A stretch of 64,000 bases of DNA, taken from NCBI GenBank assembly GCA_049324415.1, contig JBMOOS010000039.1:20363-84362 (forward strand), read 5' to 3'. The notes below the pieces were generated by a model. The model saw nothing but the letters and a program-made list of their open reading frames with translations. It did not search any database and was not told the origin of the DNA. Positions 46,784 to 64,000 of the stretch are shown one piece after another. Origin of the DNA: Pseudomonadota bacterium. GTDB lineage: Bacteria > Pseudomonadota > Alphaproteobacteria > Sphingomonadales > CAKZYD01. The position numbers and the translations under genes are program-made. Each line of letters starts with the position of its first letter. The first letter of the stretch is position 1.

Positions 46784-47284
46784 TCATGTTGCAATTATGC
46801 CATGGTTGCGCAAAGCCGCCAGAATAGCCGTGGTTGCGCTGCGTGCTTCATTATCGATGGTCGTCCCGCCGGTGGGGTTGGCGATGGCGGGCTGGCGCGC
46901 GGCGAGCACTTTAACGCCGCCAACGCGAATTTCAGAACCAATCAGCACTCCCGCCTGCCATTGGGCACCGTCGAAGCGGGCGGGCAAGGCCTCGTCCTTG
47001 AGCCAGGCGGTGGCGCCCTCTCGCGGGGCGAGGAAGCGCCAGCCGCCGCTAGCCCACAGGGCAAGCTCTCCGTCCTTGCCTGTCCACTCGCCCGTCCCCC
47101 CTGTGGCGACGATCCACACCGCGCCTTCAGGCGGCGTTGCGGGCGGCGTGGCGCTTAACCGGCTTTCCACCGCAGGGTGGATTAGCGCATCGAGCAGCAG
47201 CAAGGCTTCGTTATGGGTGACCTCCTTTTGCGCCTGATTGGTGGCGATCAGGGGCAGCAGCCAGCGTGCGGTGGCCTCGGACAT
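46784..47284 (-). CDS. DUF2793 domain-containing protein (GTA-cluster terminal gene)
   Basis: LP.I...QAQKEVTHNEAL..LDAL start and ..GEW.G....LA.W..GGWRF..P.EG... Typical partner downstream of the host-specificity gene. Confidence 0.8.
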   Translation of the reverse strand: MSEATARWLLPLIATNQAQKEVTHNEALLLLDALIHPAVESRLSATPPATPPEGAVWIVATGGTGEWTGKDGELALWASGGWRFLAPREGATAWLKDEALPARFDGAQWQAGVLIGSEIRVGGVKVLAARQPAIANPTGGTTIDNEARSATTAILAALRNHGIIAT

Positions 47285-47299
47285 GGTGAAAGCTCCTTA

Positions 47300-49549
47300 T
47301 CATAAAGCGATGGTCACTTGCGCCGGCAGGCCGCGCCCGACCTGCGCCGAACGCTGGTAAAGCCGCAAGCTGAGGGTTGCCGGCAAGCCGCCAAAATCGC
47401 TGAGCTGGTCGGCGGCGCTATAAAGTGCCTGGGGCGTGGTCGTGGCATAGCTGCGCGCCACGGTGGCGCCATTGAGGATTTCCAGGTCATAAGCCTCGCT
47501 TTCCTCGGCGAGGGGGGCATCGGCACCGTCGATCCAGGCGGCGCCGGCGCGGCTGCGCCGGATCCAGCTTATGCTGATGGCGCCATCGGCCTGGCGGCGG
47601 CCCCGCACATGCACCGGGGCAAGGGGGCGCAAATTGGCCGCAGTGAAAGTGAAGGGCGTCTCCCCTGCATTGATAAGAGCCTCGTTTGGCCCCACCGCCT
47701 TATAGCGACGCGTTTCGCCAACCTGCGCCAGTGTCGCGTTAATTGCGACAATGCTCGTGCGGTCCAAAAGGACGAAGCGCTCGCCCGCAAGATGGCCGGC
47801 GATCGCCGCCTCGCTGCCCCCCCGCCCCCGCAGCAATTGGGACAGGATATAGCTGCCGTCGGCTTGCAGAGCGGCATTGCGGAACTGGATGACTTCATCG
47901 CCGAGAAGCGCGGCGTTGGCGCCGCCAAGCACGGCTATTTGTGACCGCGATTCCAGCGTTGCCTGGGGATTGTCCAAGCCAACGCGCACTGTGTTTTGTA
48001 AGTCCCAGACATGAGGGGACGCTGGCGGCAGGGCGTCAAGGGCGGCACCCATGATGGCGGGCAGCGCGCTACGCGCCACGGGCTGATAGCTGAGGCCGCC
48101 ATCGCCCGATTCGAAAAGGCTGGCCGAGCGCCACGCATCATCATCGCCAGTGGCGGCGAAGTAAAAGCGCGGCATGCTCAGCTGCTCCGGGGTCAGCGCC
48201 GGCAGGTCGAAGAGGGTAAAGAAGGTTGGCCCCTGCAAGCGCAGGGTTTGACCGATCGGCGATCCGCCGTCGGCAAGCCCGGCGCCGGTCACCGCTTCCA
48301 AGTCAACAACGCGCCCGGCAAGGCGAACGCTGACGCCGTCATAGCGCTTGTCCTCGACCAGCATCAGCGGCGCCCCGCCCGGTGTCGCCGGCAGGCGAAT
48401 GACATCGCCCGGCTCGATGGCAAGATCGGTTGGCGGCAGCGAAAGGCTGTATCGTGCGCGCCCGCTCCAGGCCTTTTCCAATCGGCGCTCGGCCGCCGCC
48501 TTGGCCGTCGCTGCATCAAGGGCGACGGGGGCGCTGAACGCGCTCGCCCCCTCGCTCGCCGCCGTCCGCCGGCGGGCGCGCTGCACATTGGGCTGGTAGT
48601 CGCGGTCGGTGTCCCAGAAATAGACCCGGGTTTCTCGCGGCAGTTCTGATGCCTCGGCCTGCATACGCTCGATGCGCGGGCGCGGCGCGCCTTCCTCGCC
48701 AGCGCCAAGCCGTGCGGCATCGAAATCGATGGCGCCTTGTGGCATATCGCGCAAATAAAGCACGCCCTGGCTTTCCACCGCGGAAAAGTCGCGGGCGAGC
48801 GAGAGATTTTCCAGCGCATCGCGAAAGCCGGTGCCGCCATCGGTGACGAAGCCGGCGACGCTTCCTGTCAGGCCCCCGCCATCGACGGGCGCAAGCCCCA
48901 CGCGCCCGGCGATGTCCAGCGCCACCGCCGCAAGACCGGCATTGGGCTCGTCGGCCACCACTTCAAAATTGAGATTGGGCACGCGATTGGCGAACTCCGC
49001 CAGGGGCAAGTCCTCGAGGACGGCATAGGCAAGGCCGCGATGGGCCGGTACCTGCCCCACCCCTTGCGCGGCTTCGATCACCGGATCGGGCTGCTGTCCT
49101 TCCTCTCCGGCATAGACCCGCAGCGTGCCACCGACGCTCAGCGGACCACTGGCCGCACGGATGAGTTTGCCGTCGGCCCAGATCCGCTCAACGCGCGCGA
49201 TGGGGCGGCCAGAGAGCGCCACCGCCAGCGAAGCGCTGTAATTGAAGCGCACCGTGGTGGTGCCGCCTCCGCCCCCCTTGCCGCCGCTTCTTTCCTCGGA
49301 CCGGCTTTCGACGAGCCCGCTCGACCAGATGACGTTGCCCGCCACCCGGGCGCGGCCATAGATAAGGGGTATTGGCGCGCCATAGGACGCGCCCTGCACG
49401 CTGAGATCCTTCAGCCGCGGCCCTTCGCGCAGGCCGCCGCCGGGGCGAAAGATCTGGCGGTCGATGAAACTGCCGGCAACGGCGCCAACAAGGCTGCCGA
49501 CGGGGCCGGCGATGGCTTGACCGACAGCGGCGAGGACGAGCGTGGCCAT
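47300..49549 (-). CDS. phage tail/host-specificity protein (RcGTA g15 'megatron'-type, short form, 749 aa)
   Basis: The N-terminus MATLVLAAVGQAIAG...YGAPIPLIYGRARVAGNVIWSS...GGKGGGGG..V.F.YSASLAVAL..GPI..V.RIWADGK...AHRGLAYAVLEDLPL..F.NRVPNLNFEV matches the g15 N-domain. The C-terminal two-thirds are phage-tail_3-like. Start trimmed to MATLVL. Confidence 0.85.
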   Translation of the reverse strand: MATLVLAAVGQAIAGPVGSLVGAVAGSFIDRQIFRPGGGLREGPRLKDLSVQGASYGAPIPLIYGRARVAGNVIWSSGLVESRSEERSGGKGGGGGTTTVRFNYSASLAVALSGRPIARVERIWADGKLIRAASGPLSVGGTLRVYAGEEGQQPDPVIEAAQGVGQVPAHRGLAYAVLEDLPLAEFANRVPNLNFEVVADEPNAGLAAVALDIAGRVGLAPVDGGGLTGSVAGFVTDGGTGFRDALENLSLARDFSAVESQGVLYLRDMPQGAIDFDAARLGAGEEGAPRPRIERMQAEASELPRETRVYFWDTDRDYQPNVQRARRRTAASEGASAFSAPVALDAATAKAAAERRLEKAWSGRARYSLSLPPTDLAIEPGDVIRLPATPGGAPLMLVEDKRYDGVSVRLAGRVVDLEAVTGAGLADGGSPIGQTLRLQGPTFFTLFDLPALTPEQLSMPRFYFAATGDDDAWRSASLFESGDGGLSYQPVARSALPAIMGAALDALPPASPHVWDLQNTVRVGLDNPQATLESRSQIAVLGGANAALLGDEVIQFRNAALQADGSYILSQLLRGRGGSEAAIAGHLAGERFVLLDRTSIVAINATLAQVGETRRYKAVGPNEALINAGETPFTFTAANLRPLAPVHVRGRRQADGAISISWIRRSRAGAAWIDGADAPLAEESEAYDLEILNGATVARSYATTTPQALYSAADQLSDFGGLPATLSLRLYQRSAQVGRGLPAQVTIAL

Positions 49550-49959
49550 TAGGAAACCCCTGGGAAACGGTAGGCGCCGACAAGCCGCGCGCGCCACACG
49601 GGGTCAAGCCGGTGCTCGACCACGCGGCGCGCCAAGGCATAGGCGTGGATCATGCCCTTGTCGCTGGCGAGCGCCACATGCTGCGCCGGTCCATCGATGC
49701 GAAACAGCAAGACATCGCCGGGAAGCGCCGCCACCGGCGGGATCGGCGCCAGGCCGGCGGCGGCAAGATGGCGCTCCAACAGGCCGTGCGCCGGCTGGCG
49801 GCCATAGTCGCAAGGGTCGTCGGTCTGCAACCCCACGCCATGGGCGACATGGATGAGAAGGCCGACGCAATCGAGCCCCCGGCCCAATGCCCGGCCTTGA
49901 TGGCGAAAGGGCGTGCCCAAACACTGCCGGGCGGCGGCCACCAGATCATCGCGGGTCAT
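49549..49959 (-). CDS. NlpC/P60 family peptidase (RcGTA g14 type)
   Basis: GTPFRHQGR...GLDCVGL (catalytic Cys) and ...GD.L.F......HVA.. (His). Conserved position. Confidence 0.88.
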   Translation of the reverse strand: MTRDDLVAAARQCLGTPFRHQGRALGRGLDCVGLLIHVAHGVGLQTDDPCDYGRQPAHGLLERHLAAAGLAPIPPVAALPGDVLLFRIDGPAQHVALASDKGMIHAYALARRVVEHRLDPVWRARLVGAYRFPGVS

Positions 49960-50795
49960 TGCAAGCCTGGATAGTCGAGGAGCGAGTCAACGCCCGGCAC
50001 GAACGGTTCGCCACGAAAATTCTCGCCATTGGCGAATTTGTCGCGGCATGTGACAAAACGTTTGTCGCAGCCGGCTTCGACTTGAAACCGGTCGCCGATT
50101 TCGATCGGTGCGGCAAGGCTTCCCTGCAGCGCCAGCACGCCGGCGCTGTCGCTGCTCACGTCCATTTCCAAGCCGGCATTGCCGCCGCCAAGCCACAACA
50201 GCCGGCCATAGTGAAACCAGCCATCGGGAAAACCAAGGGCGCTGCGCATGCGTTTGGTCCCTTCCACCGCCGCCACCTGGCTCATCACCGTGAAGTCGCG
50301 CAAGGCGACGCGGCATTGCCGGTCGCCGAGGTCGGCGCGGCATTCGGGCGAGAAAACGGCGCCCACCGGCTGCTGCAGGGCTTGTTTGAGGCCGCGCATT
50401 TCGGCGGTGAAACGAGCGTCCTCGGCGCGTACTTCACCAAGGGTGCCGGTTTGCAGGACGATGCGCCCGGCCGGCGGGTCGGCCCAATTGACGAGGAACA
50501 CCGCAATACGCGCCAAGTCATAGCGCCCGGCAAGCAGGTCCGCCTCGCGGATGGCGCTGTCGGACAATACGCCTTCAATTTCCATATTATCGACGTTAAG
50601 GCCACTGCCGGCGGCGATCTGCGAAGGCAGGAAGGAGGGCGCCGGGCGATAGCGCGCGCCATCGATGACAAGCGTCTGATCGTGGGTGGTGAACCCAAGG
50701 CTGACGCCGTCCCGCCGGGTGACGCGCCAGCACAAGGCAAGGCTGGTCACCGGCGCGGCGAGATGCGCCGCCAGGGCGGGGGAAAGGCTGAGCAC
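49956..50795 (-). CDS. DUF2163 / BR0599-domain tail hub protein (RcGTA g13 type)
   Basis: T.LA.CWRVTRRDGV.LGFT.HD, SPEC.ADLGD..C, and C-terminal GCDKRF.TC..KF.N..NFRGEP.VPG. Confidence 0.88.
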   Translation of the reverse strand: MLSLSPALAAHLAAPVTSLALCWRVTRRDGVSLGFTTHDQTLVIDGARYRPAPSFLPSQIAAGSGLNVDNMEIEGVLSDSAIREADLLAGRYDLARIAVFLVNWADPPAGRIVLQTGTLGEVRAEDARFTAEMRGLKQALQQPVGAVFSPECRADLGDRQCRVALRDFTVMSQVAAVEGTKRMRSALGFPDGWFHYGRLLWLGGGNAGLEMDVSSDSAGVLALQGSLAAPIEIGDRFQVEAGCDKRFVTCRDKFANGENFRGEPFVPGVDSLLDYPGLQ

Positions 50796-50798
50796 GGC

Positions 50799-53153
50799 CT
50801 AAAGCCTGATCTCAACGAGGGGGATGGAAGGCACTTCCCCCGCCGCGAAGGTCTCGAAGCTGACTGCAAGGCTGTCCTCGGCGAAGCGCACGGGCACATC
50901 GAACTCGAAGCCGGCGGTGATCTGCGCGCCGCTGACCGGCGGATTTTCAAAATCGAGCACGCCGGTGGTGGTGTCGACGACCCAGCCGCTGGTCAGCTCG
51001 ACCCCATCGAGGGCGACGCGCACCGTTCCCGCCACCGGCTTCAAAATGGGGCGCACCACATCGGCGCCAAGGTCGCCATAATGCTTCACCAGTTGGAAGC
51101 TGGTGGCAAGGCCATCGCCCGCACCTAGCACTTGATCGCTCGCGCTGACCGAGGTGCCCACGCTGGCGGAGCTGAAATCGGCCCAGTCCTTGAAGCGAAA
51201 GCCGTGGGCGCGACCTTGGCGGGCGCGAAAAAAGGCGATGAGCTGGGCCAGGTCGGCCTCGCCGCGCAAGCCTCCGCCCACGTCATAGCGGGCACGCGCC
51301 TGCGCCCAATTGATATTGCGCTGTTCGGCGCCGGAGACCATCTCGCTCACCGTGGTGGAAAAGACAGGGCCGCCCGTGGCGCCGAAAGCGATATCGACGG
51401 GAAAGCGCACCTCGTGGAAGCCGGTCATATCGTCATCCTCCAGTTGGAAAAAAACAAAGCCGTCCCGGGCGACCTGCGGATAGGCCCAGACGAAGACCTC
51501 GGCAAAGCCGCGGGCGCGCCCATCCTCGATGGCGCGCGCGATGTTGCGCCACAGCGCACCATCGGCGGGGTCAAGGACGAAGCCGGCGAAATAATCGCTG
51601 TCCTGCGGGCTGTAGCCGAAACGCGCAGCGACTTGCGCAAGGCCCGCCGCATGGGCGCGCCAATCGCCAGCGATGACGTGGTCATAGTCTTCGACCTGCA
51701 GCCGGGTGAAGGCGGGAAATGACCAGCTTGCCGGCATGTTGACGCTGGCCAGCATGGGCGCGTCCGTGCGCAACACCTGCGGGGTGTAGACCAGAAGAAA
51801 GACCTTGGCGCCGGGATAGGCCCCCTGCACCGCATCGCGCAAGGCAAGGGTCGCCGCGCCCAGCTTCGTCCCGAGCCAATCGAGATAAGCCTGCTGCGCC
51901 GCATCTGGCGTTTCGGTGACGCTTTGATGGGCCGGCGGCACCGCCTGTCCCGTCTCCGCCGTATAAAGGGCGGTGGTGGTAGCGTCGTAAAAGCAGGGCT
52001 TGGCGCTAGCATCGGACGCAACCCACCACCAGGGCTCACCAATCTGCACCGCAGGGAGAAGGCCGGCGGCGGCCTGCACGCCGGTAAATTCCAGAAAGGC
52101 GTCGGCGAGATAATCCATGGCGGTGTCGTTGGTGGGCGTAAGGAGGGTGGAGGGCGGCTGCCAGCCGGTGAGCGCCGGGCTGGCGTCAAAGGCGCGCTGC
52201 TTCCAGCTTGCCGGCGCCCAAGCGTCGAAGAGCTCGAAGGAAAGCGAAAGGATGACCTCATAGCCCAAGGCGGCGGCGCGGGCGAAATAATCCTGATGCC
52301 ACGCCCGGCACGGGGCATTGAGGACGCTGCCATTGCCATCGCGGGCGGCGATGAAACGGCTCTCGCCGGCATCGAAGGCCAAGCGGAAATAATGGCTCAT
52401 CCCGGCATAATGGTCGAGCGCGCCTTGATAGCCGAGATGAAGGGCGTTGCGCAGCAGACGCTCAGGCGTCTGGTTGAATACATCGTCATAGCCATTGGCG
52501 AGGCGCAGCGGGTGCGGCGGGGTGAAGGCATCGCCAAGGCCGATGGTGCTCAGCGGCCCCTCGGCCGCCATCGCGCTGATTTCCACCCAGGCCTCGGCGG
52601 CGCCATTGGCGAGCGGGCCGGTGGCGACGCCATCAAAGTCGGGCGGCACCATGGAGATGAACATGCGGTCGATATCGCCCGGCCATAGCGGGTCGGCTTC
52701 TTGGGGAAGAAGAAAGCCGCCGTCCATTTGGCTGAAGTCAAGGGTGATGAGGGCGTCATCGGTGGCGCCGACGGCATAGTTCCAGAGCCGCACATACCAG
52801 GTGCGCGGCGCCCCGCTGGCGTCGCGGCCTTCGATGGTGAGGGTGGGGCCATTGACCTCGGCCAGGCCGCGGATGCCGCCGGCGCGCCAGCGGAAGCGCA
52901 AAACCGTGCCGCTATAGTCCCGCGCCGTTTCATAGCGCAAATGCGGCGGGTCGAGGGTATCGACGCTGTCCCAAATAAGCCCGGCAAGATTGTCGCGCTC
53001 GTAAAATGTCAAATCGACCCTGAGGGCGTCGCTCCCCTGGGTGATGACCGAGGCCATCATCGGGCGGGGGAAGTTGACGGTCCAGAAGCGGGGGTCGAAG
53101 CGCTTGATGAAGGTGCGCCTCAGCGCGTCTTCGGGGGCGGTGAGCCAATACAT
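50799..53153 (-). CDS. DUF2460 distal-tail protein (RcGTA g12 type) fused in frame to a ~575-aa N-terminal module of unknown (TIM-barrel-like?) function
   Basis: The C-terminal 209 aa (MTGFHEVRFPVDIAFGATGGP....RN.NW.....YDV..G......L..LIAFF.AR.GR.HGFRFKDW.D) are a complete DUF2460. The 575 upstream codons are in the same frame with no stop and have normal W/Y/F/D-rich composition. An internal GGAGG-N8-ATG lies at 51441-51426. Confidence 0.8.
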   Translation of the reverse strand: MYWLTAPEDALRRTFIKRFDPRFWTVNFPRPMMASVITQGSDALRVDLTFYERDNLAGLIWDSVDTLDPPHLRYETARDYSGTVLRFRWRAGGIRGLAEVNGPTLTIEGRDASGAPRTWYVRLWNYAVGATDDALITLDFSQMDGGFLLPQEADPLWPGDIDRMFISMVPPDFDGVATGPLANGAAEAWVEISAMAAEGPLSTIGLGDAFTPPHPLRLANGYDDVFNQTPERLLRNALHLGYQGALDHYAGMSHYFRLAFDAGESRFIAARDGNGSVLNAPCRAWHQDYFARAAALGYEVILSLSFELFDAWAPASWKQRAFDASPALTGWQPPSTLLTPTNDTAMDYLADAFLEFTGVQAAAGLLPAVQIGEPWWWVASDASAKPCFYDATTTALYTAETGQAVPPAHQSVTETPDAAQQAYLDWLGTKLGAATLALRDAVQGAYPGAKVFLLVYTPQVLRTDAPMLASVNMPASWSFPAFTRLQVEDYDHVIAGDWRAHAAGLAQVAARFGYSPQDSDYFAGFVLDPADGALWRNIARAIEDGRARGFAEVFVWAYPQVARDGFVFFQLEDDDMTGFHEVRFPVDIAFGATGGPVFSTTVSEMVSGAEQRNINWAQARARYDVGGGLRGEADLAQLIAFFRARQGRAHGFRFKDWADFSSASVGTSVSASDQVLGAGDGLATSFQLVKHYGDLGADVVRPILKPVAGTVRVALDGVELTSGWVVDTTTGVLDFENPPVSGAQITAGFEFDVPVRFAEDSLAVSFETFAAGEVPSIPLVEIRL

Positions 53154-53180: not shown

Positions 53181-53858
53181 TCAGCGGTCGCGCTCGGCCC
53201 GTTCGACCGCGCGGCGCACGGCAAGGGCGATTTGCCCGGCGCTTTCGCGGCCCAGGCGGGCGCTGGGCGCGGCGTTGACATTGATGGTGATGGCGATGGA
53301 CCGGCGTTGCGCCAGGTTGGGATCAGCGCGGCTTAAGGGGGCGATGCGGCCGCTGGCGGGGGGAAGAAAAACCTCCGGCCCGCGTTCGCCGACCAAGACC
53401 GGACGCCGCTCGACGACGGGGCCGCCGATGGCCCGCCCGGCGGTCGAGAGCACGGGCGGCGCGCTCCCGAAGATGGCGCTAAAGAAGCTCCCGAGAAGCC
53501 CGCCCCCGGAAGCGCCGCCGAAAATCCGATCGAGGCCAGAACGGATGGCGGCGCTGGCGATATCGTTCAAGACCCCCAGCGCCACCACGCGCAAATCCTC
53601 GAACGACAGGCGGCCGGTGCGGGCAAAGCGGATGAAGGCGTTTTCCATGCGCCGACCGGCGCTGGTGGCGGCGGTGGCCAGCAGGGCGCCAAAATTATCC
53701 ATTTCGCCGGCAAGGCTGCCCAATTGCCGCTTGGCGCCATTGCCGGCATCACTAAGGCCGGCAAGGTCGGCGCGCACGCGGCCCAGATCCCGCTCAAGGG
53801 CGCGGGTATCGGCGCGCACGGCAACGACCAGCGTGTCGAGGACTGTCTCCACGCGCAT
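53181..53858 (-). CDS. short phage tail tape measure protein (RcGTA g11 type, 225 aa)
   Basis: Helical N-terminal half, a Gly-rich middle (GGASGGGLLGSFFSAIFG) and ...GGPV...RP.LVGERGPE.F.P. Size and position match GTA g11. Confidence 0.8.
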   Translation of the reverse strand: MRVETVLDTLVVAVRADTRALERDLGRVRADLAGLSDAGNGAKRQLGSLAGEMDNFGALLATAATSAGRRMENAFIRFARTGRLSFEDLRVVALGVLNDIASAAIRSGLDRIFGGASGGGLLGSFFSAIFGSAPPVLSTAGRAIGGPVVERRPVLVGERGPEVFLPPASGRIAPLSRADPNLAQRRSIAITINVNAAPSARLGRESAGQIALAVRRAVERAERDR

Positions 53859-53883: not shown

Positions 53884-54174
53884 TTAGCGCCGCCGGCTCA
53901 TATGCAGCCACAGATGAATGGCGCGGCCCGCCACGAAGAGAAGGCTCGGCGCTATGACGGCCCAGATATTGAGGTTCTGGAAACCGCGCTCGAACAAAAG
54001 CCAGGCATAAGCGAGCAACAGCGTCAACCCCACCGCTTGCAGGGTGAAGGCGAGCGTGCGCCACCGGCGTTGGGTCTTGGCGTCGCGGCGCGCTGTCTGC
54101 GGGTCGCTTTCCCCGCGCTGACGGGCGGCGACGCGCTCACGCAAAGAAGGGCGGGGCGGCGGTGGTTCAGTCAT
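53884..54174 (-). CDS. hypothetical small membrane protein (96 aa, Arg-rich N-terminus + 2 TM helices)
   Basis: ORF on the operon strand fills the gap between the chaperone and tape-measure genes. Predicted TMs are WRTLAFTLQAVGLTLLLAYAWLLF and IWAVIAPSLLFVAGRAIHLWL. The SD is weak (GGGAG about 17 nt upstream). Confidence 0.5.
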   Translation of the reverse strand: MTEPPPPRPSLRERVAARQRGESDPQTARRDAKTQRRWRTLAFTLQAVGLTLLLAYAWLLFERGFQNLNIWAVIAPSLLFVAGRAIHLWLHMSRRR

Positions 54175-54204: not shown

Positions 54205-54414
54205 TCAACGATCGGGAAAGCGCGCCTTGAGGGCGGCAAGCCCTTCGCCGTCGAGCCTTGCCGGCGCTTCTCCGCCCAAGCCGTGCGCTTTTGCCCACAG
54301 GCTCCAGGCGGCGAGGAATTCATGGGGCGTTGCCCGCCAGAAATCCTCGGGCGGCCAGCCCATGAGGCCAGTGGCGACGCCAGCGCAGCCTTGCCAGTCG
54401 ATGAGCCGGGTCAT
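54205..54414 (-). CDS. rcc01693-family phage tail assembly chaperone (RcGTA g10.1 type)
   Basis: IDW........GLMGW.P..FW..TP.EF..A is as I recall this family. ATGA overlap with the upstream gene. Confidence 0.75.
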   Translation of the reverse strand: MTRLIDWQGCAGVATGLMGWPPEDFWRATPHEFLAAWSLWAKAHGLGGEAPARLDGEGLAALKARFPDR

Positions 54415-56267: not shown

Positions 56268-56806
56268 CACAGGTGCATCTCCCGATAGGGTTGCCACAAG
56301 GCGGTGACGGCGGTGGGCACCGCCGGCGCCGAAGCATCGTCGCGATAGCGATAGGCGTGGGCGATGAGGCGCAACAGTCCTTGGCGCAGGGGCCAGGGGA
56401 CGGCGTTCCAATCCGCGCCATAGCCGGCGCGATAGTCGATCTCGAGACGGCTGGCGGTGGCGGGCAAGCGTTTAAGGACAAGCTGGTCGCGGCCATCGCC
56501 CTGCACCAGCGCATAGTCGCCGGCGGACCAATCGAAGCTTGCGAGGCTGCTGGCTTCGCGCACCGTAAGGATGGCTTCCACCGGCCCATGGCCAAGGGTG
56601 ATGGCGGCCGTCATCGCTTGAGTGCGGTAGCGCCAGGTCTGGCTGATGAGGGAACGGCCCGTGAACCCCTCGCAGGTCTGGCGCGCCGTGGTGATCAGCA
56701 TGGCGACAAGCGCGTCTTCCGTCTCGTCCTCGAGGCGCAAATAGGCGCGCGCCTCGTCGAGCGAGACAGGCTCCACCGCCGGCGGGGAAAGAAGAAGATA
56801 GCTCAT
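56267..56806 (-). CDS. phage gp6-like head-tail connector protein (RcGTA g6 type)
   Basis: P.VEPVSLDEARAYLRLEDETEDALVAMLITTARQTCEGFTGRSLI.QTWRY is the classic gp6-like connector N-domain. Confidence 0.85.
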   Translation of the reverse strand: MSYLLLSPPAVEPVSLDEARAYLRLEDETEDALVAMLITTARQTCEGFTGRSLISQTWRYRTQAMTAAITLGHGPVEAILTVREASSLASFDWSAGDYALVQGDGRDQLVLKRLPATASRLEIDYRAGYGADWNAVPWPLRQGLLRLIAHAYRYRDDASAPAVPTAVTALWQPYREMHL

Positions 56807-57087
56807 CAGCGCTCATCCACCAGAATGGTGAAGCTGCGTTCCTCGACAAGGCCGCCCGATAGAGCGATGCGGTTGGCAACGCGATAGGCGTGGCGCTTAA
56901 TCCCGGCGGCCAGGGTGACTGAAGCCTTGGTCCCGTCGAGCGCCTCGCCAAGGATGGCAAGCCCGCCTTCCTCTTGCGGCGAAAGCGACCAGTTGCTCGT
57001 GAGGATGGTTTGTCCGGCAAACCCGGCGTCCGCCCATTCAATGCTGTAGTCAAGGGTGGCTTGCGGGTCTTTAAGAAAGGTGGTCAT
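56806..57087 (-). CDS. small phage protein (93 aa), K-DP-x3-LDY-x3-W family
   Basis: MTTFLKDPQATLDYSIEWA....GQTI.TS.W...... ...Y.V.NRI....G...ERSF.I.V.ER resembles a widespread small phage beta-sandwich family that I recall sitting next to fibre/tail genes. Only the last 93 codons of track ORF 56806..57516 look real. Confidence 0.6.
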   Translation of the reverse strand: MTTFLKDPQATLDYSIEWADAGFAGQTILTSNWSLSPQEEGGLAILGEALDGTKASVTLAAGIKRHAYRVANRIALSGGLVEERSFTILVDER

Positions 57088-57587
57088 ACGCTGGCCGCCG
57101 TCAAGGTCACGGTAACGTCGATGGTGTCGCCGTTCGCCACTACCCGGTTGCCACCGGCAAATGCCGCCCCGCCCATCAAAATGCCGGTGGTCCCGCCCTT
57201 GGTCGCATTGGTGGCGACGAAGGCGCCGCCCACGGTGCCGCTGGCGTTGATGGCAAAGCTCGCCTTGACGGCTGAATTGTCCACCGATTGCGCCGAGACG
57301 GTCCCCAAGGTCAGCGTCGGCCGGGCGGCGTTTGAATAGACGGTGCTTTCGGTCCAGCCGGCGTGGGAAGCCATGGTGTCGGCGGCGGCGAAAGTGGGCG
57401 TCCCGCCGGCGAGCCCGACATAATGCGCCGCCGTGTAGGCAGCGCCTTTCCAGAACTTGTCGAGAATCTCGTCGAGCCCGACATTGACCGTGATGTTTTT
57501 TACGGTCTCGCGCCATTTGACGGCGCCCGCCGCATCGCGGCAGACAACTTCATAGGTGTTGCGGAAAGCGGTATTGATTTGGGTCAT
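57084..57587 (-). CDS. hypothetical phage structural protein (167 aa, beta-rich)
   Basis: ATGA-coupled on both sides within the operon. Real-looking composition (W, Y, F, N, T rich). I recognise no family. Confidence 0.6.
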   Translation of the reverse strand: MTQINTAFRNTYEVVCRDAAGAVKWRETVKNITVNVGLDEILDKFWKGAAYTAAHYVGLAGGTPTFAAADTMASHAGWTESTVYSNAARPTLTLGTVSAQSVDNSAVKASFAINASGTVGGAFVATNATKGGTTGILMGGAAFAGGNRVVANGDTIDVTVTLTAASV

Positions 57588-58660
57588 GCCTTGATGCTCC
57601 TTTGGCTGGCAGTGATGGTGATGGTGCGCTTCCCCGCGCCCACGGTGAGGGTGCGGCTGGCCGCGCCGATGGCAATGGTCCTTCCCGGGCTGGGCGTGAC
57701 GGTGGTGGCAAGGGCAAACAGCGCACCTGCGCCATGCCCTATCTCGATAAGGTCATTGACGGTGAGCTTGCCCGATGCGCTCGCCGCGAACAGGCCGGCA
57801 ATGGTGATGGTTGCGCCCACCGCCGTGCGTTCTTGCTGGGCAATGTCAAGGTCCACGGCAAGCGCCAGGTCGGCGCCGATCCTGACTGCGTTCAGCGGCG
57901 AAAGGCCAGCGCCAAGGCTTAGCGACAGTGCCTCGGCGATGGCCTGGCCGCCGGGGCTTGCCGCCAGCCCGGCTCCTATCCCAAGCGCCATCGGGGCGAT
58001 GAGATAAGAGGTGACGGCAGCATCGAGCCCGGCGCCCTGGTCAAGGCTTATCAGCCCGGCAACGCCCGCCGTGCCGCCCAGTCCTGCGCTCGCGCCAAGG
58101 CCTAGATTTATTGTCTCGCTAAATACCGTACCGCCCGCAACCGGTGTAATGCTGACATGGGCGAGCGCCCAATAGCCGCTCAAGCTTGCATCGCCCAGCC
58201 GGAAGGTGGCGATAGAGCCAGTGAAGGTCAGCGTCGCCGCGGCATTGTTGGCGACCCAGTCGGCGACGCTGGTACGCAAAACATTGCTCGCGTCGTAGAA
58301 CTGCGCGGCATTGGTCGAACCCGGCGCGATGTCGAGGAGGACCGTCGCGCCGTCGAGCACCTGGATGCGCTGGGCGGTTTGCGCGAAACCCTCATCGCCC
58401 AGGGCAAGGCGTATCTGATATTGGCCGGGCGCTGGCAAATCGACGGAGAAGTTTCTTATTTTGGTGGCAAGATGCGAATGCACCCCGGCAAGCCGGGCGT
58501 CCACCGCGTTCGAGCGGTTGGCCCGCGTCAGGCCGCCGGTATTGTCCCAGCCGAAGGTCTGACCGTCGCGGGTGACGGGATAGGTATCGTTGCCGACGAA
58601 CACGTCGCCCGGCGCGTCCGTCACATGGGACGCCGTCGCCCTGAAGTTAAAGCCGGCCAT
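57584..58660 (-). CDS. hypothetical phage structural protein (358 aa; globular N-domain + periodic Gly/Ala/Leu-rich C-terminal half)
   Basis: Operon strand, starting 54 nt after the capsid stop. The N-terminal ~175 aa are beta-rich. The C-terminal half has recurring L.LGAGL-type segments and ends in four R(T/S)-led ~9-mers. Confidence 0.6.
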   Translation of the reverse strand: MAGFNFRATASHVTDAPGDVFVGNDTYPVTRDGQTFGWDNTGGLTRANRSNAVDARLAGVHSHLATKIRNFSVDLPAPGQYQIRLALGDEGFAQTAQRIQVLDGATVLLDIAPGSTNAAQFYDASNVLRTSVADWVANNAAATLTFTGSIATFRLGDASLSGYWALAHVSITPVAGGTVFSETINLGLGASAGLGGTAGVAGLISLDQGAGLDAAVTSYLIAPMALGIGAGLAASPGGQAIAEALSLSLGAGLSPLNAVRIGADLALAVDLDIAQQERTAVGATITIAGLFAASASGKLTVNDLIEIGHGAGALFALATTVTPSPGRTIAIGAASRTLTVGAGKRTITITASQRSIKA

Positions 58661-58714
58661 GGATGAAATGGGCGAGGCGGCCGTTTCTTGCCGCCCCGCG
58701 TCCGTCCCTTGTTT

Positions 58715-59974
58715 TCAGCTGAGGGCGAATTTGAGAAGCTTGATGGCCTCGGAATTCATCACCCCGCCGCCTGTGCGCCTGGTGGCGTAGAAATGAATGA
58801 AGGGCTTGTTGGAGAAGGGGTCGCGCAAGACCCGTGTCCCCATGCGGTCGGTAATGAGATAGCCGCGGGTGAAATTACCGAAAGCGATGGGCAGACCGTC
58901 GGCGCCGATATCGGGCATGTCCTCGGCTTCAACGACGGGATAGCCAAGCAAGGTGGCGGCCGCCGCCTCGCCCAACCCCGGCCGCCATAGATAATTGCCA
59001 TCGGCATCCTTGAACTTGCGGATGCGGGCCAGCGTGTTGGTGTTCATGACGAAGCGCGCGCCTTGGCGATAGACCGGCCGCAAGGCATGGACGAGGTCCA
59101 CCAGCTTATCGGCAGGATTGCTAGCCGGAAAGTCGCCGGAAACCCCGGTCGCCACATGCTGCAAGGTGCCGAAGGGGCGGCTTGCGTCATCGCTGGCGGC
59201 GGTGGCGTAGCTGAGGAAACCCCTGGGCTTGTCGATCCCGTCGCCGGCGACAAAGGCGGCGCCTTCCTTGGCCCCGAATTCGATGGCAAGCTCGTCGGCG
59301 AGCCAAGCCTCGACGTCGAAAAAGGCATCATCGAGCATGCCTTGGGTCGCCGCCGGATTGGCGTAAATCTCGCCCAAGGGCGGGGTGACCTCGGCAAATT
59401 GCGGGGTTCCCGTCTCCGGCCGGGCAGCGCTTTCCCCCACCCAGCCCGAGGCGGCGCCCGTCATGCTCACCAGTTTTTTGTAACTGCCGCTGCCGATCTG
59501 CGTCACATTGGCGATGGCGCGGATGGGGGAGACATCCTTTAAGAGACGCTCGATGGCGGCATCGATTTGCTGCGGCACGGCAAATCCGCCGTCCGCGTCA
59601 ACCCCGGTATTGAGCGCCTTGGCCTCAATCCGGGGCAAGCCGGTCTCGAGGCCCTTGCGCACATAGCGATCGATGAACGCGGTCTTGTATTCGTCGGCTT
59701 GTCCGCCGCGCCCGCTGCCTTCGAGCATGGGCCGAGCGGCGCGGCGCGTCAGCATGTCGACACGGCCGTGCAGCCGGTCGACCTCGGCATTGATACGGTC
59801 AAGTTTTTGCTCGAGGACGGCATCGCCCGTCCGCTCGGCCTCTTCATGGCTGGCCTTGAAGGCCTCGAAGGCCTGGCCCAGTTCGTCGACCGCCGCCTTG
59901 ATTTCATAGGCGCTGGCGGCGGGCCGGGCACAGGCTTCGGCCGGACTATCGGTTGGAGAGTGGCTATAGGTCAT
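58715..59974 (-). CDS. phage major capsid protein, HK97 family (RcGTA g5 type)
   Basis: N-terminal delta/scaffold-like helical region, then ..GGF.VP.......I..L....SP.R..A.V. and ...P.GFL.Y...... 419 aa. Confidence 0.92.
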   Translation of the reverse strand: MTYSHSPTDSPAEACARPAASAYEIKAAVDELGQAFEAFKASHEEAERTGDAVLEQKLDRINAEVDRLHGRVDMLTRRAARPMLEGSGRGGQADEYKTAFIDRYVRKGLETGLPRIEAKALNTGVDADGGFAVPQQIDAAIERLLKDVSPIRAIANVTQIGSGSYKKLVSMTGAASGWVGESAARPETGTPQFAEVTPPLGEIYANPAATQGMLDDAFFDVEAWLADELAIEFGAKEGAAFVAGDGIDKPRGFLSYATAASDDASRPFGTLQHVATGVSGDFPASNPADKLVDLVHALRPVYRQGARFVMNTNTLARIRKFKDADGNYLWRPGLGEAAAATLLGYPVVEAEDMPDIGADGLPIAFGNFTRGYLITDRMGTRVLRDPFSNKPFIHFYATRRTGGGVMNSEAIKLLKFALS

Positions 59975-60540
59975 GGACGTGCTCCTGTGTTGAGGGCGTG
60001 AATGAGGTTTTGCAAGCTCGCAAGAAGCGCCGACGAAGTGGGCTTTGCGTACCTGTCTGGCGGCGCGTCAGGGGCTGGTCTTGCCTTGATGGCGGTAAGC
60101 CTGGCGGCCGGCTGCATGGGGAAAGTCACCAGCGAGACTTCCCACAAGTCGATGTCGATGAGCCGGCGCACGCTGCGCGCGGCGTCGACTTCCGCCGCGC
60201 GGACCTTGTAGCCGATCGACAGGCCATCAAGGGCGCCGGCCCGCAGCAAGGCCTGGGCTTCCCGAGCACGAATGACATCGCCCAGCAGCCGGCCGCGCAC
60301 GAACAGGCCGTGGCTGTCCTCCCGGATATGCTCGATGACGCCGACAGGCTCGCGCGGGTCGTGCTGCCATAAAAGCTTGACGCCGCCCGCGCCGCGGGCT
60401 TTCAGCGAGCGGGCAAAGGCGCCGGGCATGATTTCATCGCGACCCTGGTCGATGCGTCCGAAAACGCTGGCATAGCCCTCGAAGCGTCCCACCTCGGCAA
60501 GGGACGCGAGGGCGCCAGCGGCGTTGCAGCAATGCGCCAC
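59971..60540 (-). CDS. HK97 family prohead protease (RcGTA g4 type)
   Basis: FEGYASVFG..D..RD.I.PGAF..SL......VK.LWQHD...P.G and ...GL.V.G.L......A.E....R.GALDGLSIGY. 4-nt overlap with the capsid gene. Confidence 0.9.
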   Translation of the reverse strand: MAHCCNAAGALASLAEVGRFEGYASVFGRIDQGRDEIMPGAFARSLKARGAGGVKLLWQHDPREPVGVIEHIREDSHGLFVRGRLLGDVIRAREAQALLRAGALDGLSIGYKVRAAEVDAARSVRRLIDIDLWEVSLVTFPMQPAARLTAIKARPAPDAPPDRYAKPTSSALLASLQNLIHALNTGARP

Positions 60541-60577
60541 GGCGAGTGTTCCTTCTGCAATGGTCGAAGCCGGTTTC

Positions 60578-60901
60578 CTAAGGGCGGACCGTCTTGAGGT
60601 AGAGCACCAGCCCGACGAGGAGAGCGGTGATCATGATCTTGACCAGCCAATTGACGGCGGCACGCCAGGCGGTGCGCCGCAGATCGCGCCAGGCGGTGAT
60701 GAGCTGGCGCAATTCGTAAATATCGCCGCCGGCATGGGCATCGCCAAGGCCAAGCTGGGCAAGGGCGCGGGCAGCGCCTATTTCGCTGGCCTCCTCGACA
60801 AGCGCACGCAAGGTAACGACATCGGCGCCGCCAGCCTGGGCTTGCCGCGCCAGGGCGGCGAGCAGGCTTTCGCTGTTTTGGTATCGGGCTGGCTTGTTCA
60901 T
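60578..60901 (-). CDS. small protein with C-terminal TM helix at the g3.5 position of GTA clusters
   Basis: 107 aa with a helical N-terminal part and a C-terminal TM (WLVKIMITALLVGLVLYL). The position between portal and protease mirrors the RcGTA g3.5 slot. Confidence 0.55.
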   Translation of the reverse strand: MNKPARYQNSESLLAALARQAQAGGADVVTLRALVEEASEIGAARALAQLGLGDAHAGGDIYELRQLITAWRDLRRTAWRAAVNWLVKIMITALLVGLVLYLKTVRP

Positions 60902-61044
60902 GAGGCAATCGGGAATAGCCGAGCGGGCAGGTGGCTCTCGCCTGCCCGCGCGTCGTCGGTTTGGCTTGGAAGTTTTTTTCGCTATTTAAGATTTATTGAA
61001 AACATTCTCCATCCGGCCCGTAAGAGTTTGCGCCGGCAGGCTTT

Positions 61045-61227
61045 TTAGAGCCAAATGAGAAGAATTTCGTCAGGCCGCGTGGTCTCGGTCTCGATCAACA
61101 GTTGAATGCCCGGCTGCGGCGGGGGCGGCGCGGCGCGGGCGCTGTCTTCGGTCGTTGGCGCCGCCTGCTCCAGGGCAAGCGCCGTCAGCCCCATCAACAT
61201 GGTTCCCTTCAAGGTCGCTGCCAGCAT
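61045..61227 (-). CDS. possible tiny secreted/Pro-rich peptide (60 aa), moron-like
   Basis: ATG preceded by GGGAGA 7 nt upstream. Signal-peptide-like MLAATLKGTMLMGLTALALEQA, then a PPPPQP segment. Flanked by AT-richer DNA. No homology recognised. Confidence 0.3.
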   Translation of the reverse strand: MLAATLKGTMLMGLTALALEQAAPTTEDSARAAPPPPQPGIQLLIETETTRPDEILLIWL

Positions 61228-61359
61228 GATCGCATCTCCCTGCACGCCATGGCCAATATGTCAGCAAGACCAATGCCAGATTCGTAAAACGCATATTTCT
61301 CAAATCGTTAGCATGAGAAAGGCGCGTCATGGTTAGGAAAATGTAAAGATTTCCAACGC

Positions 61360-62604
61360 TCAAGCGCCAGCCTCGTCCCCTTCTGGGACGTCCTCGCCAT
61401 CGCGCATCCGGGCCGGCAGGAGCGGCAATCCCAGAACGACACGCTTTTCCGCGTCAGTCAAAAAGCTTGCCGCCGCCACCATGCGCCATAAAGCCTCGCG
61501 CTCCGGTAACAAGGCCGGGATGGCGTTGCGGTCGAAGTCGAGCTTCAACCCACCGCCAAAGGCGGGGGCGAGCCAGCGGTCGAGGGCGCCGGCAAGCTTG
61601 CCGAGTAGGGGCAACAGGCTGAGCCGCCACAGGGCGCGGTTGGCTTCCTGATAATTGGCGTAAGTATTGTCGCCGGGGATGCCCAACAGCATGGGCGGGA
61701 CGCCGAAGGCGAGCGCGATGTCGCGGGCGGCAGCGTTTTTGGTCGCGTGATAATCCATGTCGGACGGCGAAAAGGCCATCTGCTGCCATTTAAGGCCGCC
61801 TTCGAGAAGCAGAGGCCGGCCGGCGTTGCCGCTGCCTTGGAAGTTTTCCTCCATTTCTTTTTTAAGACGCAGGAACTGCTCCTCGCTGAGCGCTGGCGCG
61901 CCGTCGCGGGGCTCGAAAACGAGCGCCCCGGAAGGCCGCGCCGCGTTGTCGAGAAGAGCCTTGTTCCAGCCATCCACGGCGCCGTGGAGGTCGAGGCCGC
62001 GGGCTGCGGCATCGAGGGCTGAAAGACCCAAATGGTCGTCGAGGGGATCGAATTCGCGGATATGCAAAATTGACGAGGCGCCGCTAATGGGATCGACGGG
62101 AAAACGGTGCTTGGCGCCTCCAGCGCGGTATTCATAGGCCTCCGGCCAGCCGGACGCGCCAGCAAGGATATGCATGCGGTCGGGCCGCAGCACATGAAGC
62201 TCCGCCGGCGCCCCCTCGCTGTCATCGACCCGCTCGATGAAGGCATCCCCCGCAAGCAGAAGATAGCCAATGAGCGCTTCGATGAATTCCGCGCCGCCAA
62301 GCAGCGGGTTGGGCCGTCGCAAAAGATCAAGAAGCGGGTGCTGGATCAGCGCCCGGCCTTCCTGCTCAAGCCGCCAGGGCACTGCGGCGATCGATTGGCT
62401 GACGATCCGCACGCAACGCTGGACCACGGGATTTTCCGCCATCCCGCGCCGCACGAGGCTGGCATAAGACCGCCCCGACCATTGGGCGCCCATGCCAGCG
62501 AAAAGCCATGTTTCAAGCCGCGCCGGCGCGCCGCCACGCGCCGCGCTCGCCTTGGCTTCCAGTACGGGTCGCGGCCGCCGGAAGGGATTGCCAAATATCG
62601 CCAT
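61360..62604 (-). CDS. phage portal protein, HK97 family (RcGTA g3 type)
   Basis: ...NP.V.RCV..I...IA.VPW.L......... .HPLL.LL.RPNP...G..F.E......LL.G.A. and ...GW.....Y. 414 aa. Confidence 0.92.
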   Translation of the reverse strand: MAIFGNPFRRPRPVLEAKASAARGGAPARLETWLFAGMGAQWSGRSYASLVRRGMAENPVVQRCVRIVSQSIAAVPWRLEQEGRALIQHPLLDLLRRPNPLLGGAEFIEALIGYLLLAGDAFIERVDDSEGAPAELHVLRPDRMHILAGASGWPEAYEYRAGGAKHRFPVDPISGASSILHIREFDPLDDHLGLSALDAAARGLDLHGAVDGWNKALLDNAARPSGALVFEPRDGAPALSEEQFLRLKKEMEENFQGSGNAGRPLLLEGGLKWQQMAFSPSDMDYHATKNAAARDIALAFGVPPMLLGIPGDNTYANYQEANRALWRLSLLPLLGKLAGALDRWLAPAFGGGLKLDFDRNAIPALLPEREALWRMVAAASFLTDAEKRVVLGLPLLPARMRDGEDVPEGDEAGA

Positions 62605-62692
62605 GTGATGTCCTTGCCCGCTTGGGATATGAAAAAGACTATTGGCCCTTGAAGGGGGTTTGAGGTCCGGCCCGGCGTTTCAAGACGGGCTC

Positions 62693-64000
62693 TTAGCCGA
62701 GCCGCCGCACCCGCGGCGCGGCGGCGGCCGATGCGCCCATCAAGTCGGTCAGCGCCCAGACCAGCGCGTCCATGCGGTCGGGGCTCGCCTTGCCGCCGGC
62801 CGGCGCAAAGCTGCACATCTCATCCTCGAGTTCCAGCATGAGGCCGACATGATGGACCTGGCCGCGCTCGTAAAGCGCCGCCACCGGCTCGGCGCGGATA
62901 AGCTTGCCGCGGCTGGCGCGCACCGCGCGATAAGCGACATGGGACGCGCAGGCGCGCAGCACCGCTTCCACGAGGTCGCCGCCATTGTTCACCTCCGCCA
63001 CCAGCCGGTCGGCGCCATGGCGGTCATAGGCGGCGACGGCGCGTTGGCTCCAGCCTTCGGGGCTCAGGCCCTGCACGCTGTCGTCGGCAAGGACATAGAA
63101 ATGGCCGTCCGGCCCGAGGCCAGCAGTGACAATGCCGCAGCGATCGGAGGTGGCATGGCTGGTCACTGGCGGGTCCACCGCCACCACCACGCGCATGAGC
63201 GGCGGCGGCGCCTCGACGCGGTAGGCGTCGATCATGTCTTGGCGCCACAGGGCGCCAGCGTGATCCTCCAAGAGCATGCCTTCCAGCTCTTGCCGGCCCA
63301 AGCGCGTGCCCTGATAGCGCTCGCGCATCTGGGCGATGAAGCCGGCCGGCAAATGCGTGGCATTTTCCCAGGTGGTTCCCCGGGTGACGACGGTGGCGGG
63401 GGCGGCAAGAAGATTGCGCAGCAAGGCCATGGGCCGCGGCGTCGTGGTGACCAGAAGGCGCGGGCGCGCGCCCAGGCGCAAGCCCAGCAAGAGGTTGGAC
63501 CAGACGGCCTCGGCGCGGTGCCATTTCGCCAGCTCATCGCCCCAGGCAAGGCCATGCTGGGGGCCGCGCAGTTGATCCGGCTCGTCCGCCGAATAGAGGG
63601 TGGCGACCGCGCCGTTGGGCCAGACGAGGCGGCGCCGCGCGGCTTCGAAGCAGGGCCGTTGCCCGGGCGGCGCGCAGGCAAGAAAGCCGGATTCGCCCTC
63701 GACCAGGATGTCGCGGCCATCGGCAAGGCTGCCGGCGACAAGGGCGATGCGCGCCGGCGCGTGCCCAGGCGCCAAAAGCGGGCTTGCCCCTTCGACGAAG
63801 CGACGGACCCATTCCACCCCCAGCCGCGTCTTGCCAAAGCCGCGCCCGGCAACCACCAGCCAGCAGAACCAATCGCCCGGCGGCGGCAGTTGCTTGGGCC
63901 GGGCCCAAAAGCGCCAGTCATGAAGAAGCTGGCGTGCGGCGGACGCATCGATATCGCTTATCACCGCGCGCCAGGCGGCGGGACCTTGGCGCACCAGCCG
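62693..64000 (-). CDS. phage terminase large subunit (RcGTA g2 type), 5' end at or beyond window edge
   Basis: LL.DW.FWARP.Q..P.GDW..WL..AGRGFGKTR.G.EWV (Walker-A-like) and a C-terminal RNaseH-like nuclease region. The frame stays open to position 64000. Confidence 0.9.
   Translation of the reverse strand, partial: RLVRQGPAAWRAVISDIDASAARQLLHDWRFWARPKQLPPPGDWFCWLVVAGRGFGKTRLGVEWVRRFVEGASPLLAPGHAPARIALVAGSLADGRDILVEGESGFLACAPPGQRPCFEAARRRLVWPNGAVATLYSADEPDQLRGPQHGLAWGDELAKWHRAEAVWSNLLLGLRLGARPRLLVTTTPRPMALLRNLLAAPATVVTRGTTWENATHLPAGFIAQMRERYQGTRLGRQELEGMLLEDHAGALWRQDMIDAYRVEAPPPLMRVVVAVDPPVTSHATSDRCGIVTAGLGPDGHFYVLADDSVQGLSPEGWSQRAVAAYDRHGADRLVAEVNNGGDLVEAVLRACASHVAYRAVRASRGKLIRAEPVAALYERGQVHHVGLMLELEDEMCSFAPAGGKASPDRMDALVWALTDLMGASAAAAPRVRRLG

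Follow-up and report, generated by a model that had tools for sequence, protein, structure and literature searches.

A probable RcGTA-like gene transfer agent cluster in an alphaproteobacterium near Sphingomonadales, with an N4 sheath-like module on its distal tail protein and a putative neck-fibre cassette

The 64,000-nt stretch analyzed in this study (hereafter the window; positions 20,363 to 84,362 of contig JBMOOS010000039.1, assembly GCA_049324415.1) carries on its minus strand a series of phage-type head and tail genes, which occupies positions 46784-64000 and runs approximately 520 bp beyond the window end. This region was interpreted as the head-tail operon of a domesticated and chromosomally inherited gene transfer agent (GTA) resembling that of Rhodobacter capsulatus (RcGTA), a reading to which we assign a probability of roughly 0.8. 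Its architectural type is one that Sphingomonadales and neighbouring alphaproteobacterial lineages have in common. In the proposed mode of action, a GafA-like activator would turn on one long transcript, the terminase would pack host DNA into small HK97-type heads, and a short tail would be assembled on a tape measure protein of 225 amino acids (aa).

The original prediction recognized an RcGTA-like head-tail cluster, which was confirmed by the family matches, the gene order, and the RcGTA-length tape measure, and further suggested that it could stand midway from prophage to domesticated GTA, which was not supported. Because most of the genes regarded as extras relative to RcGTA are clade-wide or recur in related GTA clusters, the locus does not appear to be a half-domesticated prophage. 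Namely, the fused distal tail gene (g12) was found as a single uninterrupted open reading frame (ORF) in 130 of 133 related loci, homologues of the DUF6127 protein were detected by tblastn in 67 of 80 genome loci, and the slot between the capsid and adaptor genes was occupied in about 50 of 131 loci (about 38%; 0.9-4 kb), being empty (<500 bp) in 80; moreover, the short tape measure is canonical and a gafA-type gene seems to adjoin the cluster. A vertically inherited, domesticated cluster fits these data, given the short tape measure, the host-like composition, the recurring flank, and the gafA-type neighbour. The value of the analysis is mainly corrective: genes that look "non-canonical" when measured against RcGTA seem mostly normal for this branch of GTAs, and are not evidence of an intermediate.

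Gene order, relatives, and phylogeny

Genes were called from ORFs combined with Pfam, PHROG, and NCBIfam profile searches. The head genes begin with the large terminase (TerL, g2; 62693..64000, clipped by the window end; Terminase_6N E 2e-21, Terminase_6C E 5e-17), whose full length of 454 aa is encoded at 1345-2709 of L001, an identical 7.3-kb Logan contig. TerL is followed by the portal protein (g3; 61360..62604; Phage_portal E 2e-86), a 60-aa ORF (61045..61227), a DUF6127 gene, the prohead protease of the S78 family (g4; 59971..60540; Peptidase_S78 E 6e-32), and the HK97-fold major capsid protein (g5; 58715..59974; Phage_capsid E 3e-89), which also matched the RcGTA capsid (PDB 6tb9, E 5e-90). 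After the capsid gene come the genes for a 358-aa protein (57584..58660), a 167-aa protein (57084..57587), and a Gp77-like protein (56806..57087), then the gp6-like head-tail adaptor (g6; 56267..56806; TIGR02215 E 3e-36 and Phage_connect_1) and the head completion or stopper protein (g7; 55932..56267; Phage_HCP E 3e-17). Next to g7 lie an HK97-gp10-like gene (55591..55935), the tail terminator (g8, DUF3168; 55163..55570; PF11367 E 7e-34), the tail tube (g9; 54724..55137; Phage_tail_2 E 2e-37), a tail assembly chaperone of the GTA-gp10 type (TAC11; 54411..54731; Phage_TAC_11 E 2e-19) with a second chaperone (TAC6; 54205..54414; Phage_TAC_6 E 1e-11), a 96-aa protein with two predicted transmembrane (TM) helices (53884..54174), and the 225-aa tape measure (53181..53858; Tape_meas_lam_C E 1e-8). 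The series is completed by a 784-aa DUF2460 protein (50799..53153), the baseplate hub (49956..50795; TIGR02218 E 7e-80, with PF09931 and PF09356), an NlpC/P60 peptidoglycan peptidase (49549..49959; NLPC_P60 E 1e-6), the host-specificity protein or megatron (47300..49549), and a DUF2793 protein (46784..47284; DUF2793 E 6e-32), beyond which an OmpA gene follows. All of these features lie on the minus strand.

From the small-terminase-like gene located just past the window end through the DUF2793 gene, the cluster is approximately 17.7 kb long, and the RcGTA cluster is shorter. The RcGTA head-tail order has a counterpart here at sixteen positions, those of g1 and g3.5 through weak similarity or location only, and the 22 family-assigned or conserved genes are all intact. 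The gene series was found as originally listed, every gene being present in the stated order. The tight junctions described before were also confirmed: most neighbouring genes overlap by 1-8 nt or are separated by 3-54 nt, and the extras are linked via ATGA-type overlaps. Furthermore, the GC content and its value at third codon positions (GC3) were 0.663 and 0.775 for the cluster against 0.664 and 0.801 for the host genes, and no extra gene deviated, which together with the junctions bears out the view that the extras are integrated into the operon. The earlier list of extras named genes that do exist; it had overlooked the 107-aa DUF6127 gene at 60578-60901. As for the tape measure that had been called very short, the length of 225 aa proved right, while the suggestion that this is unusual did not, as the NCBIfam model RcGTA_tape itself has 220 positions; the window protein spans positions 9-220 of that model, albeit with a weak score (20.7 against a 220-bit cut-off).

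Since the isoleucyl-tRNA synthetase (IleRS) encoded in the window shared 64-66% identity with its counterparts from Rhodothalassiaceae, Iodidimonas, Kordiimonas, and metagenome-assembled genomes (MAGs) labelled "Sphingomonadales bacterium", the host appears to be an alphaproteobacterium near Sphingomonadales. A capsid-based scan restricted to one genome per species gave more than 560 relatives, the best of which was 67% identical, and 80 loci were kept; the L-numbers used below denote the related loci or contigs compared with the window. These 80 loci were mostly from Sphingomonadales genomes and MAGs, and tblastn with every window protein revealed the same layout throughout.

Capsid and TerL trees were built by neighbour-joining without bootstrap, with RcGTA included in the capsid tree only. 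In both trees, the window formed a clade with L002, L003, and L004/L005, joined by L006 in the capsid tree, and this clade lay inside or beside chromosomal clusters of Sphingomonadales genomes and MAGs, whereas the phages MW202777, Desulfofustis phage, and SfIV fell outside. Clusters from Hyphomicrobiales, Parvularculaceae, and unclassified Alphaproteobacteria were more distant, and RcGTA joined these outside the sphingomonad clade in the capsid tree. The capsid and terminase phylogenies that had been suggested as a check both grouped the window with chromosomal clusters rather than with phages.

The same loci bear on whether the cluster could be a cryptic, non-functional prophage remnant that is conserved by descent and forms no particles. 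Decay is indeed seen among the relatives: L030, which lacks the tail genes, and L041, which lacks those from the tube to the tape measure, are decaying at the same OmpA-adjacent site, and L089 is reduced to the cassette, TerL, and a truncated portal. In the window, by contrast, the 22 genes are intact and tightly joined and an activator gene appears to be adjacent; the architecture has been maintained in over 130 loci whose proteins are 45-65% identical, and selection has been reported in analyses of Sphingomonadales GTA genes (PMC9765227). We consequently regard a remnant as quite improbable and a domesticated GTA as the better account of the cluster.

Several observations on individual relatives are recorded here. 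L008, labelled Acidovorax delafieldii, grouped with the Blastomonas loci in the capsid tree and matched the window at the same identities, and a MAG contig labelled 'Maricaulis salignorans' (L017) paired with Sphingorhabdus rigui; both placements probably reflect contamination or mis-binning. Insertions were seen in L006 (about 6.7 kb at 2269-9004, between the portal and DUF6127 genes) and in L002 (about 2.5 kb at 10145-12674, between the adaptor and gp10-like genes). L083 (GenBank MW091529, 'Bacteriophage sp. 103231') looks like a canonical RcGTA-type cluster and is probably a bacterial GTA locus filed as a phage: its tape measure is 181 aa long, its distal tail protein is plain, and its megatron of 1272 aa precedes efflux genes.

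Genes that distinguish the cluster from RcGTA

The 784-aa product of the g12-type gene is a fusion of an N4 sheath-like module (aa 1-575) with a DUF2460 distal tail protein (aa 578-784). Pfam recognized PF23844 (NCTSP_N, E 2e-88), PF23845 (TIM-barrel_NCTSP, E 4e-129), and PF09343 (E 3e-85). Residues 278-568 matched the TIM barrel of coliphage N4 gp64 (9lc0_M, E 2e-52), residues 13-89 the N-terminus of N4 gp65 (9lc0_I, E 1e-14), and residues 578-784 the RcGTA distal tail protein Rcc01695 (E 8e-66). The fused protein was further found in at least 600 IMG/VR contigs, the best 80 of which were all 25 kb or shorter, and among isolated phages in one 5.4-kb fragment only.

The extension of g12 is offset by a megatron that is about 540 aa shorter than that of RcGTA. 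The window megatron, of 749 aa from an ATG or 765 aa from an upstream GTG, scored 557 bits with GTA_megatron, below the cut-off of 800, and aligned only to residues 27-332 and 766-1303 of the RcGTA megatron (E 1e-62). The Pfam family GTA_TIM had no match in it, and was found in the megatron of L056. Megatrons measured 701-764 aa in loci with the fusion (n=38) and 1260-1334 aa in those without it (n=5), showing a strict either/or relation: a locus carries a TIM barrel either in its megatron or, in N4-like form, in its distal tail protein. This pattern was not met in the GTA literature searched. Homology between the N4-like TIM barrel and GTA_TIM was considered and rejected, the BLASTP comparison giving a 54-aa match with E 0.016 and Pfam no cross hits at E<=5. 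As the two TIM-barrel families lack significant similarity, the change is best described as an apparent replacement; a domain transfer is not demonstrated.

The non-contractile sheath of N4 is built with six-fold symmetry from heterodimers of gp64, the minor subunit, and gp65, the major subunit, which binds the receptor (PMC13434306). The distal tail protein of RcGTA assembles into a hexamer and touches the hub and the megatron with its N-terminus (PMC7296036), and the peripheral TIM-barrel domain of the RcGTA megatron protrudes from the baseplate as one of three contacts of the biofilm-degrading tailspike TspA (bioRxiv 2026.07.19.739414). If the distal tail protein of the window is likewise a hexamer, six N4 sheath-like modules would crown the tip of the tail and take the place of the peripheral TIM-barrel domain missing from the megatron.

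A second set of distinguishing genes fills the interval between the capsid and adaptor genes. Its last member, which overlaps the start of g6 by 1 nt, encodes a 93-aa putative fibre-tail adaptor that covered 83 of the 84 profile positions of PF23148 (Gp77, E 3e-21) and matched PDB 8jou_D (E 0.003). Gp77-like genes were present in 45 of 172 loci, usually as the last gene of the insert and right before the adaptor gene. In the podophage GP4, the homologue is a 93-aa immunoglobulin-like protein, 15 copies of which surround the head-tail adaptor, a 12-mer, and hold three fibre sets in place (PMC11445570). Upstream of the Gp77-like genes, the relatives encode proteins that vary greatly and measure 295-989 aa; several contain fibre-like domains or domains related to glycans, such as Peptidase_S74 (endosialidase chaperone) in L007 and Laminin_G_3 in L172, together with a weak GDSL match below the Pfam cut-off in L057. 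The trio of a variable, a 167-aa-like, and a Gp77-like gene also occupies the same slot of the canonical-type cluster L173, and in L172 and L089 it is placed ahead of the small-terminase-like gene. Among the loci sampled, the sphingomonad-type baseplate was combined with the 167-aa family only in the window.

The 167-aa protein belongs to a conserved family of virion structural proteins (phrog_8123, E 4e-29) with 2975 homologues, the best of them 60-70% identical. Its profile matched PDB 26la_U, named 'Structural protein' (E 5e-18), whose aligned residues 14-158 were identical to ORF007 of Pseudomonas phage KPP25; the bioRxiv paper mentioning KPP25 does not explain the role of ORF007. An AlphaFold2 model of the protein had a mean predicted local distance difference test score (pLDDT) of 90, and its fold matches in BFVD, a database of predicted viral structures, included tail fibre proteins. 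The protein may be a fibre subunit. A resemblance to the 167-aa protein that had been considered for the mid-sized cassette proteins of L002, L003, and L004 was withdrawn, as neither phmmer nor the search with a hidden Markov model (HMM) was significant.

The 358-aa variable protein consists of a beta-rich N-terminal domain and an Ala/Gly-rich C-terminal half. It matched no Pfam or PHROG family, and a full-length search found its own MAG only, without any homologue of the C-terminal half. The N-terminal domain defines an unnamed family of 1545 representative proteins; when nine multi-domain members were scanned, several matched CBM_35, Big_2, or NPCBM_assoc, some of them weakly. We propose that the 358-aa protein is a distal fibre or adhesin. 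At the C-termini of the variable proteins of the window (57584-57700), L002, L003, and L004, three or four short repeats of the type Arg-x-[LIV]-x-[VI] were noticed by eye, and these could be a shared anchoring motif. An 11,195-bp JGI contig carries a homologue of the N-terminal domain two genes after its capsid gene, with an integrase and a small terminase and no recognized tail genes; this element looks like a phage satellite.

Taken together, we infer that the three-gene block is an optional neck-fibre cassette: the Gp77-like protein would form a collar encircling the adaptor ring as in podophage GP4, to which the conserved 167-aa protein and the variable, adhesin-like 358-aa protein would be attached as neck fibres. 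A recurring neck-fibre cassette with a GP4-type collar protein was not met in the GTA literature searched. The TIM-barrel swap and the neck cassette suggest that GTAs have diversified their binding to recipient cells. We tentatively put forward, at somewhat less than even odds and for sphingomonad-type GTAs including this one, a particle morphotype not described before, with a six-fold N4-like crown and, in about a third of lineages, a GP4-like collar bearing swappable fibres. If true, host recognition by GTAs would be modular and exchangeable, like the receptor-binding systems of phages.

The remaining distinguishing genes lie in the head and the neck. The 107-aa DUF6127 protein (60578..60901, PF19622) occupies the portal-protease interval, which we take to be the place of the small g3.5 ORF of RcGTA. 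The 60-aa ORF preceding it has a hydrophobic N-terminus and was called as a gene in L001; it had no family match in Pfam or PHROG and no tblastn match in the related loci, and it may not be a real gene. The HK97-gp10-like protein, of the Neck1 type and not found in RcGTA, was recognized by phrog_5 (E 3e-8) and HK97-gp10_like (E 0.018). Iterated HMM searches of 126 neck intervals detected g8 in all 126, g7 in 51, and the gp10-like gene in six, namely five loci of the window subclade (of about 125 chromosomal or IMG/VR loci) and the phage MW202777; a gp10-like gene is also present in L002 and L172. Loss or replacement of g7 in Sphingomonadales has been reported (PMC9765227).

These neck genes provide grounds for a transitional element, that is, a prophage partway to a GTA that keeps phage genes shed by RcGTA. 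Besides the gp10-like gene, which is rare among GTA-type clusters and shared with MW202777, this reading can draw on the g7 kept here and on the position of the window subclade, which branched near the base of the sphingomonad-type clade in the neighbour-joining trees. It is opposed by the RcGTA length of the tape measure, the lack of lysis and replication genes in view, the adjacent gafA-type gene, and the host-like composition; in addition, the other extras are clade-wide or recurring cassettes, and the cassette genes also occur in a canonical-type GTA cluster. We judge a transitional element to be unlikely. The phage-like character once ascribed to the extras stood for the gp10-like gene and was not supported for the g12 extension and the cassette: the gp10-like gene seems to be an ancestral phage gene, a single phage-like retention within a GTA cluster rather than a mark of transition.

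The 96-aa protein with two predicted TM helices matched no Pfam or PHROG family, and its homologues were found only in L002, L006, and L092; a gap of corresponding size between the chaperone and tape measure genes was present in six of 130 loci. Its position before the tape measure gene recalls that of the HK97 gp15 moron, a superinfection exclusion protein, and is mentioned as a lead only.

Flanking sequence and regulation

The sequence past position 64000 was read from L001, which extends 1.3 kb further upstream. Just past the window end, a 154-aa gene overlaps the TerL start and gave a weak Sf6_terminase match (E 1.5e-4, under the Pfam cut-off), so that inspection of this flank for g1, as previously recommended, did yield a candidate small terminase. 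Directly upstream of it lies an AT-rich spacer of about 350 bp (L001 450-800; 20-40% GC in a genome of 66% GC) in which no motif was identified; comparable AT-rich stretches were seen in L003 and L047. The spacer is followed by a divergently oriented gene for a small membrane protein, accompanied by a terminator-like hairpin.

RcGTA is activated directly by GafA. A C-terminal DUF6456 fragment (last 48 residues, E 2.7e-20) is encoded at L001 1-165, corresponding to about 65239-65400 in window coordinates, and ends approximately 720 bp upstream of the small-terminase-like gene. As GafA homologues are annotated as DUF6456 proteins (PMC9638019, PMC9765227), a gafA-type activator gene appears to adjoin the cluster. 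DUF6456 genes were likewise found upstream of the cluster in L002, L003, L065, L076, and L094. Promoter and terminator scans of the cluster gave results at or below chance.

On the opposite side, the host genes downstream include those for OmpA, an EAL protein, IleRS, MutL, and a pseudouridine synthase. A DUF2793 gene was present in 32 of the 80 related genome loci, with OmpA downstream of it in 23, so that the ordinary OmpA flank described earlier is both real and recurrent. The DUF2793 protein matched chain 8gtc_S of the roseophage R4C tail machine (E 8e-16; 9 chains in the entry) as well as, more weakly, two PHROGs annotated as tail fibre, and is probably a short tail fibre. The roughly 2 kb that separate OmpA from the next recognizable gene (43400-45470) are lower in GC (0.61) and contain ORFs without a Pfam match. 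No tRNA genes and no Rfam families at the gathering threshold were detected across the 64 kb.

These flanks are pertinent to a further possibility, namely that of an intact temperate siphophage, with the cluster as its late region and with its genes for integrase, regulation, replication, and lysis located beyond position 64000 on the upstream side. The 1.3 kb inspected past the window end and the identity of approximately 48-52% between the capsid and TerL proteins and those of real phages leave some room for it. However, neither the 46 kb on the downstream side nor the 1.3 kb visible on the upstream side showed an integrase with att sites or a replication or lysis module, in agreement with the earlier statement that such genes are missing, and the AT-rich spacer, the membrane-protein gene, and the gafA-type gene upstream include no phage gene. 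In L003, where 4.7 kb upstream are visible, Pfam recognized just a helix-turn-helix (HTH) protein and the DUF6456 protein, and the upstream ORF families of 52 related loci, judged by eye, resembled ordinary host genes. The tape measure is 225 aa long against 700 aa in the related phage, and the IMG/VR elements with the fusion did not exceed 25 kb among the best 80. An intact siphophage is hence highly improbable.

Several points weigh against the reading of the cluster as a domesticated GTA with the particle features proposed above. The portal tree was less clean than the capsid and TerL trees, all of the trees stand without bootstrap support, and the view upstream of the small-terminase-like gene is limited to 1.3 kb. 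To our knowledge, neither particles nor DNA transfer are on record for any Sphingomonadales GTA. The canonical CtrA box (TTAA-N7-TTAA) is absent: no full site occurred ahead of the small-terminase-like gene, where about 500 bp were covered in L001 and 400 bp in 42 relatives, and only one single-mismatch site, in L028, appeared when one mismatch was allowed. Both the sheath-like crown and the neck collar are argued from homology. In the cassette, the AlphaFold2 model of the 358-aa protein was left unused (three-sequence alignment, mean pLDDT 43), and the model of the 167-aa protein gave nothing significant with Foldseek against the PDB; compared with GP4 fibre I (gp80), the 167-aa protein had no Pfam match, and one homologue reached 24.6 bits, under the 27-bit cut-off. 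In L090 and L091 (ENA; podophage with P22-type portal), moreover, a 167-aa homologue is located between the small-terminase gene and a 445-aa gene, which may be the large terminase; such an inter-terminase site is an odd place for a fibre protein.

Comparison with known systems

With RcGTA (rcc01682-rcc01698; 6tb9, 6tba, 6teh), the window shares the same order from the terminase to the megatron, including the roughly 220-aa tape measure, and direct sequence matches of the capsid, the distal tail protein, and the megatron. It differs in the 575-aa N4 sheath-like module added to the N-terminus of the distal tail protein, in a megatron without the peripheral TIM-barrel region of about 430-540 aa, and in the addition of the three-gene cassette between capsid and adaptor, the gp10-like neck gene, and the 2-TM gene. 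Furthermore, the DUF2793 and gafA-type genes adjoin the window cluster, whereas the tail fibre and gafA genes of RcGTA are found at other loci, gafA having been located outside the head-tail cluster (PMC9765227).

Sphingomonadales are already known to carry RcGTA-like 'large clusters' (PMC5721377, PMC9765227), and dozens to hundreds of these loci share the N4-like fusion, the short megatron, DUF6127, the small-terminase-like gene, and the DUF2793/OmpA flank with the window. Relative to them, the window belongs to a small, deep, non-Sphingomonadaceae subclade (L002-L006, L092-L094) that keeps g7 and the gp10-like gene.

Among phages, MW202777, a metagenomic siphophage of 45 kb (circular), agrees with the window in module order, including the gp10-like gene ('putative tail component'), with TerL and capsid proteins 48% and 51% identical to those of the window. 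It differs in its 700-aa tape measure, plain 209-aa distal tail protein, and 1319-aa megatron with GTA_TIM, and also has a lysis gene (muramidase) as well as helicase and nuclease genes.

The sheath of coliphage N4 (9lc0, 9yf4) is matched by the window in the gp64 TIM barrel and the gp65 N-terminus, and is six-fold like the distal tail ring of RcGTA. In N4, however, gp65 is a separate partner of 1382 aa and ten domains, of which the window matches only residues 53-129, whereas in the window a single chain unites both parts with a distal tail protein of the siphovirus type; the two systems also differ in tail type. As in the Ralstonia podophage GP4 with its gp77 (8jou), the Gp77-like protein of the window is approximately 93 aa long and its gene lies right before that of the head-tail adaptor; the window differs from GP4 in being a long-tailed, GTA-type cluster with different partner fibres.

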